Of a stretch of DNA of 64,000 nucleotides, positions 46,687-54,319 are shown in pieces. The position numbers and the translations under genes were made by a program. The notes under the pieces were generated by a model. The model was not told the origin of the DNA. It did no database searches and saw only the letters and a program-made list of their open reading frames with translations. The stretch's first letter is position 1; every line of letters begins with the position of its first letter. Source of the DNA: Escherichia coli (lineage in GTDB: Bacteria > Pseudomonadota > Gammaproteobacteria > Enterobacterales > Enterobacteriaceae); assembly GCF_048403405.1 (NCBI RefSeq), contig NZ_CP183129.1; one strand, 5' to 3'.

Positions 46687-47082
46687 ATGCGTAAAGTTAT
46701 CACCTTTGGTACATTTGATGTATTACATATAGGTCATATAAATATCTTAAAAAGGGCAAAAAAAATGGGGGACTATCTAATAGTTGGCGTCTCATCCGAT
46801 TATTTGAATTTCTCAAAAAAACAGAGGTATCCTGTTTATCCGGAAACTGAGCGTCTTGAAATAATTAGGTCCTTAAAATTTGTAGATGAAGTTTTTATTG
46901 AAGAGTCATTGGAATTAAAGGGCGAGTATATTAAAAAATTTAAGGCAGATATCTTAGTGATGGGAGATGATTGGCTAGGGCGATTTGATGAATATAAGGA
47001 ATTATGTGAAGTATCATATCTGCCAAGAACTGTTGGTATTTCAACGACAGAACTAATTTCTCAAATCAAAAGATATGGTTAA
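46687..47082 (+). CDS. glycerol-3-phosphate cytidylyltransferase (TagD-like)
   Basis: ORF track 46675..47082; MRKVITFGTFDVLHIGHINILKRAKKMGDYLIVGVSSD... HxGH nucleotidyltransferase motif, strong similarity to Bacillus TagD. Confidence 0.88.
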   Translation: MRKVITFGTFDVLHIGHINILKRAKKMGDYLIVGVSSDYLNFSKKQRYPVYPETERLEIIRSLKFVDEVFIEESLELKGEYIKKFKADILVMGDDWLGRFDEYKELCEVSYLPRTVGISTTELISQIKRYG

Positions 47083-47097
47083 TTTTGGAGAGGGATT

Positions 47098-48333
47098 TTG
47101 AAATTTCATTCAGAGATAAAAAACTCTATAAAAAATGCGAAGAAATTCAAAGGTATTTTATTTGTTAATATAATATCTTATCTGCTGCTAACAATTGCGA
47201 TAAGAAAAGGTCATTCGAAAGAGATTTTAAAATTTAAGTGGTTGATTTTACTTTTTGGCGGGAGTGTCGCTAAATATTTTGTTGCTAGGGCTTCATTTCT
47301 TAATGGTGATTATATATTTGCTAAGAAATTATATCAAGAGATAATTAAGGTAAACCCAATACATACTGATAGCTATTATGGGTTGGCTGATGTTTATAGA
47401 CTAACCGGAAATAAATTAGAAGCGAAGGATGTACTCATTCAAGTTTTTAATTTTTCTGATCGTTTGAAAACTTGGCTATTATTGGCGAACTTGGTTGATA
47501 CAAAAAAAGATTATGATGAATTATTGAATCATTGGGAAAGGGAATGTTCTTATAGGAATATACTTAAGTATCATTATGATGTGAACGATTACCTTATAAT
47601 TGCTGCGTTAAGGGCTAAACTATATGAAGAAGCATTAAATCGGGTTAAAGTATTGTTGGGAAGTATAAATTCTGAGGCTTTTATCTTACCAAAAACTAGC
47701 AATAAAAACTTTTCTGTTAATGCTGCTAAAATTGCATTATTAGGTCTAAAAAAAATATTGGATGCTAATAAAATACAGTTTTTTTTAGTTAGCGGAACAT
47801 TACTTGGTTGTATTCGTGATAAAAAATTACTAAAACATGACAAAGATATTGATATAGGAGTATGGAGCGAAACAAATCTATCCGTATTATCAACGAAAAT
47901 TGCTTGCTCTGGCTTGTTTGATATTGCACCTATGCGCTCACCGTATACGTTGAGAATAAAACATGTTAATGGTGTGGCAATCGACATATTTTTTCATTAT
48001 CGAGATCATGACAGCTATTGGCATGCGGGTTCAAAGCTGAGATGGAACAATACTCCATTTAATTTGATTTCTTATGGTTTTCTTGGGAACGTGTTTTTAA
48101 TACCAGAAAATTATGATTTATATTTGACTGAGAATTATGGAAACTGGATGCAAGAAAAAATGAAATTTGACTCTGCATTCGATACACCCAATCATGAAAT
48201 AGTTAATATGTATGAATTAAAAATACACGCGTATAAAAAGCTAATAATAAACATGAAAATTGGTAGTGTTGAAGGCGTTAGATATTATGAAGATAAATTA
48301 AATGAACTTGGGTGTATTATATCTAAGCCTTGA
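47098..48333 (+). CDS. two-domain protein: N-terminal TPR-like region plus C-terminal LicD-family phosphotransferase domain
   Basis: 411-aa ORF (TTG start after ggagaggg RBS); LicD-type motif SGTLLGCIRDKKLLKHDKDIDIG. Confidence 0.65.
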   Translation: MKFHSEIKNSIKNAKKFKGILFVNIISYLLLTIAIRKGHSKEILKFKWLILLFGGSVAKYFVARASFLNGDYIFAKKLYQEIIKVNPIHTDSYYGLADVYRLTGNKLEAKDVLIQVFNFSDRLKTWLLLANLVDTKKDYDELLNHWERECSYRNILKYHYDVNDYLIIAALRAKLYEEALNRVKVLLGSINSEAFILPKTSNKNFSVNAAKIALLGLKKILDANKIQFFLVSGTLLGCIRDKKLLKHDKDIDIGVWSETNLSVLSTKIACSGLFDIAPMRSPYTLRIKHVNGVAIDIFFHYRDHDSYWHAGSKLRWNNTPFNLISYGFLGNVFLIPENYDLYLTENYGNWMQEKMKFDSAFDTPNHEIVNMYELKIHAYKKLIINMKIGSVEGVRYYEDKLNELGCIISKP

Positions 48334-48386
48334 GGTCTATATAACTGAATATATTAAATATTAAAAAATAATCATGGGGACATAGT

Positions 48387-52187: not shown

Positions 52188-52289
52188 AGCATTAATCTAT
52201 ATCATGATCGTCAAGAACCATTGATTGATTTGTAAGGAGGTATACCTCCTTACAAATTAAAGTAAATTTAGTTAAGTTAATAAATAATT

Positions 52290-53318
52290 ATGAATAAGAC
52301 AGTTTTACATATTAACAGTAATATAACCACAGATGAAATTAGTTTATTGTTGCAGGCATCCAAGTATAAATATATTCATTTTGAAATAATTGGGAAAGGT
52401 GATTCATGTAAAAATTTAATTGAGTTTTCATATCATGATTATAATAAAAAAAAACAATTAATTGCTTTAACTAATGCTGGTTTTATGTCGTACGTTCATC
52501 GTGGAAATGTAACTTCATTGGTTCACTTTGATGAGATAAAAAACCTCTGGATTCCAGTAAAAGAAAAAAAGTTTTCTATTAATTCTGATGGGATTGTATA
52601 TACGTTACAACGGGCTGCATGCAAAATAAATGAAAAGCTACTGATTGTTTTCTCTCAGATGCCAATTGAACCATATTCTGCAAGCTTGTACAGATATTTT
52701 GCAAAAAACTTTTCTACAATTGATAAATATATTGGAAAAAATGTTTCTATATTAAGAGTGGCTGATATCGGAGGAATTACTGGCTCATTTTACTTAAATA
52801 CAAATGCATTACCAACCAATGCTGATAAAATTAAAAGCCTTATATTAGAAGTTATTGAACAATGTCAAATAAAATCAGATGATGTCGTACTTTATGGATG
52901 CTCAAAAGGAGGTACGGCAGCCGTTTATCATGGATTAACTAATAATTATAAAATAGTAGCGGTGGATCCTATATTAAATGATGAACATTATATAAATAAT
53001 AAAAATGATCTACATTTAATAGAGGGAGTTTTTCCTCAGCCAAAGGAAGAGTTATTCAAAAAAGTCATTGATGACTATTTAATAAACTATAAGGGGAATA
53101 TGTCTTATTTTATTGTTTCACAAAATTCGGAACAGTACAAATATATTATGGATATTATAAATCCAATCATCACTTATTCAACAGTTGCAAATAGCATCAA
53201 TGATAAAATTAAAAGCCATCCTGATGTTGGGCCACAATCAATTCATATGATTGTAGCAATGATTAATATGGCTCTTTCTGGAATAAAACTATCTAACGGC
53301 ATCTATGATTTTGTTTAA
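52290..53318 (+). CDS. hypothetical protein with serine-hydrolase-like GxSxG motif (possible polymer-modifying enzyme)
   Basis: 342-aa ORF in AT-rich region 2; motif VVLYGCSKGGTAAVYHG resembles an alpha/beta-hydrolase nucleophile elbow. Confidence 0.55.
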   Translation: MNKTVLHINSNITTDEISLLLQASKYKYIHFEIIGKGDSCKNLIEFSYHDYNKKKQLIALTNAGFMSYVHRGNVTSLVHFDEIKNLWIPVKEKKFSINSDGIVYTLQRAACKINEKLLIVFSQMPIEPYSASLYRYFAKNFSTIDKYIGKNVSILRVADIGGITGSFYLNTNALPTNADKIKSLILEVIEQCQIKSDDVVLYGCSKGGTAAVYHGLTNNYKIVAVDPILNDEHYINNKNDLHLIEGVFPQPKEELFKKVIDDYLINYKGNMSYFIVSQNSEQYKYIMDIINPIITYSTVANSINDKIKSHPDVGPQSIHMIVAMINMALSGIKLSNGIYDFV

Positions 53319-53323
53319 ATAAT

Positions 53324-54319
53324 ATGGCTTTAAGATTAAATTCTGTTTTTATACTTGCGGTGATTTGCAGTATCCAAATTTGTAGCGCTGCTATTTTAAG
53401 TAAAAGCTATTCACATAATGATATTCATATCACTCTGCCATTATTATTTAATGAGTACGATGATGTACTCAGTCAGTATGACGGGGCAAAATATTTATAC
53501 CCTAGTTCATTTGCTCTTGATGATGATAATAATATTTATATTCAGTATATTTTTGAGCCAAAACAAAAGGATAATATATTAGTTTGTTATAATAAAAAAG
53601 GAAATTACCTTGGGTACTATAAGATACCAAGTGGTGGGCGAGGCGGGGCTGGCGAAGGTTTGGCTATTATACAAGACTATAATGGGTTTAATGTTGTATA
53701 TGTCGTTTCGAATACGGGAACCTTGCAAAGATATAATATGGTGAGTAGCTTGTATGGTGACAGATTATTTAAGGAAAGAGATTTTTCAATTAATGCTTTT
53801 AACCAATTTTCGATGAGTCAAGACTATTGGCTTATTGAAGGTTATGAAAGCGAAAGAAGTATAAAGTATAGTAGAAATAGACTTGAACTATATTCAGTAA
53901 GTGGAGATTTATTAAGAGTAATTTATTTACAGAATAATTATTCTGGATATATTGTATCAGATGCGAGTCCTGATGCAAAGAATTATAATAAAAGACAAGG
54001 GATAGCTTTAGGTGATGGTTTTTTTGTTGCTAGTTATGGTGCCTTTTACTATTCCAAAATGGAAAGTACTTATAATACATATCAAGGCATTAGAGTTTTT
54101 GATTTTTCCGGAAAGCTTTTATCTGAAAAAATTTTCCATCCAAATGAAATGATGAATGTTCTCAAAAAAATGGGCTTAACAGTTTCTAGAATTGAAAATG
54201 AGGGAGTGATAGTCAAGAATAATACTATTTACAGTATGTATATTTATAGTGATAGATACCATCATAAAACCTCCAGAAGTGAAGGGATCATTATTCTACT
54301 GGATGAATTTACTCAATAA
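53324..54319 (+). CDS. hypothetical secreted protein
   Basis: 331-aa ORF with cleavable-type signal peptide MALRLNSVFILAVICSIQICSAAILS; no recognisable catalytic motif. Confidence 0.55.
   Translation: MALRLNSVFILAVICSIQICSAAILSKSYSHNDIHITLPLLFNEYDDVLSQYDGAKYLYPSSFALDDDNNIYIQYIFEPKQKDNILVCYNKKGNYLGYYKIPSGGRGGAGEGLAIIQDYNGFNVVYVVSNTGTLQRYNMVSSLYGDRLFKERDFSINAFNQFSMSQDYWLIEGYESERSIKYSRNRLELYSVSGDLLRVIYLQNNYSGYIVSDASPDAKNYNKRQGIALGDGFFVASYGAFYYSKMESTYNTYQGIRVFDFSGKLLSEKIFHPNEMMNVLKKMGLTVSRIENEGVIVKNNTIYSMYIYSDRYHHKTSRSEGIIILLDEFTQ

Follow-up and report, generated by a model that had tools for sequence, protein, structure and literature searches.

Positions 46687-54319 of a 64,000-nucleotide stretch of Escherichia coli DNA (contig NZ_CP183129.1 of assembly GCF_048403405.1; the whole stretch is referred to below as the window) constitute, with a probability of about 0.93, region 2 of K2, a group 2 capsule locus of E. 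coli, which makes a teichoic acid-like galactose-glycerol-phosphate polymer. The block consists of five consecutive open reading frames (ORFs) on the plus strand, here called genes 1 to 5, with kpsMT on one side and kpsFEDUCS on the other. Its limits are the first base of the gene 1 ATG and the last base of the gene 5 stop codon, in agreement with the RefSeq gene coordinates of strain CFT073. Locus identity, chemistry and polymerase family have already been published, and the finding itself is not new; three side points may be, namely the homology of gene 5 to phage proteins, the lack of CpsA in the locus and the lack of a detectable glf in K2 genomes.

By employing megablast with positions 46600-54400 as the query against 5426 complete E. 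coli genomes, we found the block in 140 of these, always in a single copy and on the chromosome. The identity was at least 99% in 127 genomes and 95-99% in the other 13. The former class takes in CFT073 (O6:K2:H1), ATCC 25922, NCTC86 and several isolates of sequence type (ST) 131, as well as C 691-04A (O6:K2:H1) and C 237-04 (O2:K2:H1), the serotypes of the last two being those labelled in the genome records. Only three bases separate region 2 of the window from that of CFT073, and the flanking kps genes and the gene order are the same. In gene 4 the window has K53, by virtue of an A9 tract (52446-52454), where CFT073 has L53 (TTA7), and one further base change lies in gene 3; a functional difference is not expected from either. 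Since the block is nearly identical to that of CFT073, and at least 99% identical to strains typed as O6:K2:H1 and O2:K2:H1, it is assigned to K2. This bears out the original prediction in its choice of K2 as the candidate, but not in its view that the serotype could not be assigned from sequence, as identity to typed strains allows just that.

In the literature, region 2 of K2 corresponds to c3692-c3696, alias kslABCDE. Deletion of c3694 (gene 3) in CFT073 removes all anti-K2 reactivity (PMC5442458), while deletion of the ksl operon leads to loss of the capsule and of most serum resistance (PMC11342863). Furthermore, a 2025 preprint gives a genotype-serotype map including K2a and K2ab. That the block instead specifies some other glycerol-phosphate K antigen merely resembling K2, e.g. 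an untyped variant with a different linkage, is hardly credible. The 95-99% identical variant in 13 of the 140 genomes leaves some room for it, as do the serotype labels, which were not re-verified, but the window itself belongs to the class of at least 99% identity together with CFT073 and two K2-labelled strains, and the CFT073 polymer is detected by anti-K2 serum in a c3694-dependent manner (PMC5442458).

The surroundings and the composition of the block are those of a group 2 (ABC-transporter-dependent) kps locus, i.e. kpsMT and kpsFEDUCS as flanks, a region 2 low in guanine plus cytosine (G+C), and an ops element before kpsM. The G+C content is 0.29-0.33 (about 30%) in the five-gene block, compared to 0.45 in kpsM and 0.39 in kpsT, and to values of 0.46-0.55 for region 1 as well as for the chromosome. 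Runs of 7-9 A or T bases are numerous across region 2, as expected at 30% G+C. The proteins comprise 131, 411, 1266, 342 and 331 amino acids (aa), in order from gene 1 to gene 5; for gene 1 this is counted from the ATG at 46687, the ORF list extending it to a GTG at 46675. Gene 3 is not a chance ORF, because it runs for 1266 codons in DNA of 30% G+C and has homologues at E = 0. The ops motif GGCGGTAG is by itself not above chance, with two occurrences in the window against 1.3 expected. In group 2 kps loci, ops/JUMPStart together with RfaH lets transcripts that start at the region 3 promoter continue into region 2. The position of the motif before kpsM fits RfaH-dependent transcription running on into region 2, and it is this position, along with the established knowledge of group 2 loci, that gives the motif its meaning, the motif alone being insufficient.

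Gene 3 carries the assignment of the polymer. Its product has an N-terminal tetratricopeptide repeat (TPR) domain from aa 1 to about 480, with TPR matches spanning aa 8-364, followed by a TagF-like domain at about aa 500-860 and a GT4/GT-B domain at about aa 880-1266. The motifs WHGTP (603), RGHH (732) and TDYSS (770) of the TagF-like domain, and EX7E (1187-1195) of the GT4 domain, are invariant in 24 homologues. In the PDB, the best matches were to the capsule polymerase Cps3D (8qoy, E = 1.1e-249), TagF (3l7i, E = 2.5e-39) and TarM-type enzymes (about 1e-8), and the TagF-like domain alone aligned almost without gaps to Cps3D (E = 1.5e-109). The NCBIfam family TarF was matched at E = 5e-50. 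All of this conforms to the TagF-like/GT-B polymerase architecture (Litschko et al. 2018), with an ORF of 3.8 kb (the threshold being more than 2.5 kb), the motifs, the GT-B domain and the N-terminal TPR. Cps3D makes ->4)-alpha-Gal-(1->2)-Gro-(3-P-> (Gal, galactose; Gro, glycerol) from UDP-Gal and CDP-glycerol, and alternating transfer of glycerol-3-phosphate (Gro3P) and Gal in vitro has been shown for Cps3D, Cps7D and Cps11D; the TPR domain of CpsD is needed for linker elongation. By homology to Cps3D, the K2 polymerase encoded by gene 3 would make the same Gal-glycerol-phosphate backbone. This backbone is common to K62 (K2ab), Actinobacillus pleuropneumoniae serotype 9, serogroup H of Neisseria meningitidis, and Pasteurella haemolytica T15. 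The titles of cited papers equate the first of these capsules with the other three.

Two side observations concern the distribution and integrity of this type of polymerase. A scan of genome contigs with the polymerase alignment listed matches from Gram-positive bacteria and a few others. Among the matches listed, fused TagF-like and GT4 proteins related to gene 3 are widespread in Firmicutes and Actinobacteria (loci L006-L081), and two are found in Methanobrevibacter assemblies. In E. coli MS 69-1 (NZ_CP146675.1, 818809-826610), the matching stretch exceeds the query by one base, and the annotation there has a glycosyltransferase and two TPR proteins instead of a single CDP-glycerol glycerophosphotransferase family protein. 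Both features suggest a frameshifted polymerase, and the strain is probably a capsule-negative variant.

For gene 1, the best NCBIfam family by far was TIGR01518, glycerol-3-phosphate cytidylyltransferase (E = 2.7e-37), and the TagD crystal structure 1coz was matched at E = 1.6e-36. The protein carries the motifs HIGH (HxGH) and RTVGIS (RTxGISTT). The RefSeq names for it, "pantoate--beta-alanine ligase" and "FAD synthase family protein", appear to be mis-namings, as these similarities point to a glycerol-3-phosphate cytidylyltransferase.

Gene 2, which adjoins the polymerase gene, a position that is kept in related kps loci, encodes a LicD-family protein in which a TPR domain takes up the N-terminal part (about aa 40-190) and a divergent LicD domain the C-terminal part (about aa 200-400), the latter with the motif DKDID at aa 248-252. 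In an alignment of 40 homologues, LicD was recognized at E <= 1e-3 in 23 and at E <= 0.1 in 39, and the family profile picked up TPR proteins (E = 8e-28) as well as FKRP (6kaj), an enzyme of the LicD family (E = 2e-4). The same combination of N-terminal TPR and LicD in a protein of similar type (gene 2 having about 410 aa) is found in CpsC of A. pleuropneumoniae; here as elsewhere, the comparison with CpsA-D of that species rests on published descriptions (Litschko et al. 2018, 2021, 2024). CpsC polymerizes a linker of poly(glycerol-3-phosphate) (PMC11666461), and gene 2 most likely has the same role rather than that of decorating the polymer. Two other functions can be considered, both unlikely. 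Decoration with a phospho-substituent would be in line with classical LicD enzymes, which transfer phosphocholine, and with FKRP, which transfers ribitol phosphate, but no extra phospho-substituent is described for K2, and CDP-glycerol is the sole activated donor made by the locus. Gene 2 might also be the missing Kdo-priming enzyme (Kdo, 3-deoxy-D-manno-octulosonic acid), as the K2 locus has no CpsA, so that Kdo priming needs some other enzyme, and as other loci lacking CpsA carry homologues of genes 1-4. Against this, Cps3C was unable to use a Kdo acceptor in the published A. pleuropneumoniae work, and both the domain layout of gene 2 and its place between cytidylyltransferase and polymerase match those of CpsC.

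The product of gene 4 belongs to the XcbB/CpsF family (NF033892), with 299.4 bits against a cut-off of 125 and profile positions 1-290 of 291 covered. It matched PDB entry 9hvz at E = 4e-53 as a single sequence and at 8e-102 with the family profile; 9hvz has three related entries, one of which is named as an acetyl-CoA complex. The AlphaFold model (mean predicted local distance difference test score, pLDDT, 92.5) has an alpha/beta-hydrolase fold, and the top Foldseek match was Gap2/Asp2 of the accessory Sec system. The serine S205 of a GCSKG motif and H310 are invariant in 44 homologues and, with an aspartate (D226 or D240), form a candidate catalytic triad. Asp2/Gap2 and SacC/CsaC are carbohydrate O-acetyltransferases. 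According to the 2025 preprint, K2a and K2ab differ in galactose acetylation, and a one-base insertion disrupts the putative acetyltransferase in K2a. Gene 4 is probably an acetyl-CoA-dependent O-acetyltransferase of galactose and the K2ab determinant, and because it is intact in the window, an acetylated K2ab genotype is suggested. It is improbable that gene 4 encodes an esterase or another non-acetylating protein, as might fit XcbB of the non-acetylated capsule of meningococcal serogroup X. Most of its fold neighbors are indeed esterases or peptidases with the alpha/beta-hydrolase fold, and published work found no transferase activity of CsxB/XcbB on Kdo acceptors and assigned no function to it. 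The balance is tipped by the acetyl-CoA-bound structure deposited for a member of the gene 4 family, by Asp2/Gap2 and SacC/CsaC, of the same fold, being among the closest structural and profile neighbors, by the coincidence of the K2a/K2ab acetylation difference with a frameshift in the putative acetyltransferase of the locus, and by the lack of any other acetyltransferase candidate gene in the K2 locus.

Gene 4 is also a target of phage selection, as CFT073 mutants resistant to phage MLP3, on which plating is about tenfold lower, have +1 or -1 frameshifts in c3693 (PMC8849078). The published site, position 3521953, maps to the A7 tract of gene 4. Natural phase variation at this tract was considered and found not to be supported, as the tract does not vary among the 127 close K2 genomes. 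There are E. coli alleles in which gene 4 is disrupted (P0016 and P0019), but these have other origins.

The original prediction had thus read the block largely as it is found here, i.e. as a markedly AT-rich stretch between kpsMT and kpsFEDUCS holding a TagD-like cytidylyltransferase, a LicD protein with TPR and a giant TagF-plus-GT4 polymerase, and with no genes for sugar-nucleotide synthesis, of which there is none apart from the cytidylyltransferase. Its inference of a glycerol-phosphate capsule built from CDP-glycerol and a housekeeping nucleotide sugar agrees with the need for c3694 in K2 production and with the relatedness of the polymerase to Cps3D. The remaining two genes it had counted as coding for unknown proteins, which holds for gene 5 with its lack of Pfam and NCBIfam matches, but not for gene 4, which falls into a named family.

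Taken together, the five genes and their flanks suggest the following pathway. Transcription would enter region 2 from the kpsM promoter by way of ops and RfaH. The gene 1 enzyme would convert CTP and sn-glycerol-3-phosphate to CDP-glycerol, while KpsS and KpsC would provide the lyso-phosphatidylglycerol-poly-Kdo anchor. On this, the CpsC-like product of gene 2 would extend a short linker of poly(glycerol-3-phosphate), to be recognized by the TPR domain of the polymerase. The latter would then alternate between its two active domains, the TagF-like domain transferring Gro3P from CDP-glycerol onto O4 of Gal, and the GT4 domain using housekeeping UDP-Gal to attach alpha-Gal to O2 of glycerol, with ->4)-alpha-Gal-(1->2)-Gro-(3-P-> as the predicted product. 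O-acetylation of the galactose from acetyl-CoA by the gene 4 protein would give the K2ab form, and KpsMT and KpsED would export the polymer.

A number of points weigh against this reading of the locus. At the level of the individual proteins, gene 1 scores 127.6 bits against TIGR01518, which is under the curated equivalog cut-off of 165.4, and gene 2 taken alone matches Pfam LicD weakly (E = 4e-4). The steps proposed for genes 2, 3 and 4 are drawn from homology to characterized relatives. Two further points concern the pathway as a whole, namely its initiation and the sugar composition of its product.

As for initiation, the first glycerol-phosphate is attached to Kdo in A. pleuropneumoniae by CpsA, a TagB-like protein, and a Kdo acceptor that has not been primed by CpsA is no substrate for the LicD enzyme (PMC11666461). 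A tblastn search with the TagF-like domain over the whole 64 kb window found gene 3 only, and no CpsA/TagB-like (PF04464) gene. A CpsA-type gene was likewise absent from two related kps loci (L003 and L083) with cytidylyltransferase, LicD and polymerase genes; the search covered the K2 window and these two loci, and a very divergent or unlinked gene could escape it. Because A. pleuropneumoniae needs CpsA and the K2 locus has none, the initiation step is incomplete in the model presented above, and the published initiation model is not transferable unchanged to E. coli. A second point that could matter, besides gene 5, is that K2-type loci may start polymerization without a CpsA-type primer enzyme.

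As for composition, the classical structure of K2 has units of both the galactofuranosyl and the galactopyranosyl type, going by the title of Fischer et al. (1982), and no UDP-galactopyranose mutase gene is found in region 2. A blastn search of the E. coli genomes with K-12 glf found this gene in 613 of them, at >=99% identity in 488 and at 60-80% in 125. Each sampled row of the former class adjoins an O16-family wzy gene, the 125 genomes of the latter class are fewer than the 140 K2 genomes, and no known K2 strain was among the 60 glf rows sampled. K2 genomes as a class are without glf detectable at the DNA level, at which a very divergent mutase could escape. As a galactofuranose pathway is not evident, this part of the 1982 structure is called into question. 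Apart from this, a glf 65% identical to that of K-12 is situated at about 963.6 kb in E. coli HB37 (NZ_CP053080.1) and at about 871.1 kb in E. coli YP3 (NZ_CP072687.1), chromosome positions that resemble those of the kps loci of related genomes. These divergent genes may belong to another galactofuranose-containing capsule type.

Of the five genes, gene 5 alone is without a family assignment. Its product had no match in Pfam or NCBIfam, and a sequence-profile search of the PDB gave nothing; matches came from fold comparison and phage searches only. It consists of an N-terminal signal peptide (...CSA/A) and a five-bladed beta-propeller only. Just 13 homologue clusters were found, and those with a source name are from Enterobacterales (Pantoea and Rahnella). 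The homologue directly follows that of gene 4 in a Rahnella kps locus, and also in a kps locus from a metagenome, where all five genes stand in this order. Genes 1-4 but not gene 5 are present in a kps locus that is more distant. The K2-like kps locus of Rahnella (L002) furthermore has an extra gene, at 5165-6157 between the gene 5 homologue and kpsS, for a 330-aa beta-helix (NosD/Beta_helix) protein. The beta-helix is a characteristic fold of polysaccharide lyases and depolymerases.

In phages, gene 5 matched PHROG 22693 at E = 8e-17, and a tblastn search matched 38 phage genomes. In Kayfunavirus and other coliphages the identity was 29-37% over 83-89% of gene 5, with E-values down to 6e-40; further matches were to Salmonella and Erwinia phages, and to 20 Staphylococcus or Mammaliicoccus phages. 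Among the coliphages whose tail spikes carry a gene 5-like domain are Kayfunavirus EcoIv41_Bia and EcoIv39_Milel, EK8, HC6, 6947, ZCEC08 and U8. In coliphage EK8, the gene 5-like segment is situated between an N-terminal virion adaptor and a C-terminal Peptidase_S74 chaperone. In endosialidase-type tail spikes, the domain at this position between adaptor and chaperone is the catalytic, receptor-binding one. In phage HHU-22 of staphylococci, the gene 5-like segment comes after a stem with homology to Gp45 of phi11 and gp61 of 80alpha. The platform domain of phi11 binds wall teichoic acid. Charged residues that are invariant and common to gene 5 and the phage proteins are E111, E172, R184, K223-R224-Q225, R289-x-E291-N292-E293 and R311. 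At the levels of sequence and fold alike, gene 5 shows homology to coliphage tail spikes, in their central domain, and to the receptor-binding proteins of staphylococcal phages, in their platform domain. The PHROG label "glycerophosphoryl diester phosphodiesterase" was considered and not accepted as evidence for such a function of gene 5, since no GDPD domain was found in the propeller-carrying proteins of coliphages and Twort-like phages. In the literature, we found no publication on the homology between gene 5 and phages, no experiment on gene 5, and nothing usable on a K2-specific coliphage depolymerase or on the host capsule of phages with a gene 5-like domain.

By analogy with these phage domains, the most likely activity of the gene 5 protein would be to bind, and perhaps cut, the teichoic acid-like K2 polymer outside the cytoplasm. 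We tentatively propose, at less than even odds, that it is an unrecognized exported capsule component, periplasmic or at the surface, that binds or cleaves the K2 polymer and shares ancestry with the domain by which coliphage tail spikes and staphylococcal phage receptor-binding proteins would recognize glycosylated polyol-phosphate polymers. Its roles would then possibly be surface retention, chain trimming or clearing of mislocalized polymer. It is distinctly unlikely that gene 5 is a piece captured from a phage tail-spike gene, hitch-hiking in region 2 with no role in the capsule. Such an origin would agree with the finding that, beyond a few enterobacterial kps loci, the homologues are phage tail proteins only, and with two instances in which the gene is dispensed with, i.e. 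the related kps locus with genes 1-4 alone and the A. pleuropneumoniae capsule backbone, which is made in the lack of any gene 5-type protein. However, gene 5 is a full-length ORF with a signal peptide of its own and with neither the phage adaptor nor the C-terminal chaperone domain, and it stays after gene 4 in loci that are just 38-52% identical, with about 60 residues invariant. The kept position and the invariant residues indicate purifying selection in a cellular context.

The positions of the features are given in Table 1. Outside of the capsule genes, the interval between glcA and kpsM (40403-44057) contains, according to the CFT073 annotation, an IS4 transposase gene with a frameshift, gspK and gspL in truncated or frameshifted form, and yghD; these are what is left of a type II secretion cluster where kps is inserted. 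Beyond kpsF, a fragment of IS110 is found.

Table 1. Features of the K2 capsule locus in the window, with nucleotide positions, strand and the basis of each assignment.
Feature	Position	Strand	Basis
ops element GGCGGTAG	45191..45198	+	exact match in kpsM leader, 33 nt upstream of annotated kpsM start
kpsM, ABC-transporter permease (region 3)	45231..46007	+	CFT073 RefSeq annotation mapped to window; ORF
kpsT, ABC-transporter ATPase (region 3)	46004..46675	+	CFT073 RefSeq annotation; ORF
gene 1 (c3696), probable TagD/CpsB-type CTP:sn-glycerol-3-phosphate cytidylyltransferase	46687..47082	+	profile, structure and motif matches
gene 2 (c3695), TPR + LicD, CpsC-like	47098..48333	+	Pfam and family profile
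gene 3 (c3694), K2 capsule polymerase, TPR + TagF-like + GT4	48387..52187	+	PDB and NCBIfam matches, motifs, published deletion
gene 4 (c3693), XcbB/CpsF family, putative O-acetyltransferase	52290..53318	+	NF033892, PDB 9hvz, AlphaFold model
A7 tract in gene 4, codons 93-94	52564..52570	+	maps from published position 3521953
gene 5 (c3692), exported five-bladed beta-propeller	53324..54319	+	signal peptide ending ...CSA/A; fold and phage matches
kpsS (region 1), beta-Kdo transferase initiating glycolipid anchor	54481..55719	-	CFT073 annotation; ORF
kpsC (region 1), poly-Kdo linker synthesis	55754..57781	-	CFT073 annotation; ORF
kpsU (annotated kdsB), CMP-Kdo synthetase	57778..58518	-	CFT073 annotation
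kpsD, outer-membrane export protein	58528..60204	-	CFT073 annotation
kpsE, inner-membrane and periplasmic export adaptor	60228..61376	-	CFT073 annotation
kpsF, arabinose-5-phosphate isomerase	61448..62431	-	CFT073 annotation

In extra-intestinal pathogenic E. coli (ST73 and some ST131), K2 is one of the most frequent capsules, and it aids serum resistance, which gives the locus medical relevance. Gene 5 could be a handle on the retention, trimming and recognition of teichoic acid-like capsules, and on phage tail spikes targeting K2.

Among known systems, the nearest characterized relative of the K2 locus is the CpsB-CpsC-CpsD set of A. pleuropneumoniae serotypes 3 and 7, in which CpsB (a cytidylyltransferase), CpsC (TPR-LicD) and CpsD (a TPR/TagF-like/GT-B polymerase) are the counterparts of genes 1-3. 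The K2 locus differs by the absence of CpsA and by two additions, a protein of the XcbB/CpsF family and a beta-propeller that is exported. Both are missing from the four region 2 genes (CpsA-D) described in A. pleuropneumoniae. As to the first of these additions, CsaC/SacC of N. meningitidis serogroup A and the streptococcal Asp2/Gap2 have their fold and the GxSxG nucleophile elbow in common with gene 4, but the sequence similarity is marginal (E = 0.005-0.05), and the family of gene 4, XcbB/CpsF, with 9hvz as its solved member, is a separate one. As to the second, phi11 Gp45, 80alpha gp61, NF5 Gp17 and the coliphage tail spikes are virion proteins with adaptor, stalk or chaperone domains, whereas gene 5 encodes a stand-alone exported cellular protein in a capsule operon, with no adaptor, stalk or chaperone. 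Finally, in Gram-positive wall teichoic acid synthesis, TagD corresponds to gene 1, TagF to the middle domain of gene 3 and the TarM-type GT4 enzymes to its C-terminus, with folds and donor chemistry in common, and the K2 enzymology is predicted to be that of Gram-positive type II wall teichoic acids. The two systems part in the handling of the chain, as wall teichoic acid is built on undecaprenyl phosphate and attached to peptidoglycan, whereas the K2 polymer would be carried on a Kdo glycolipid and exported by KpsMT and KpsED.

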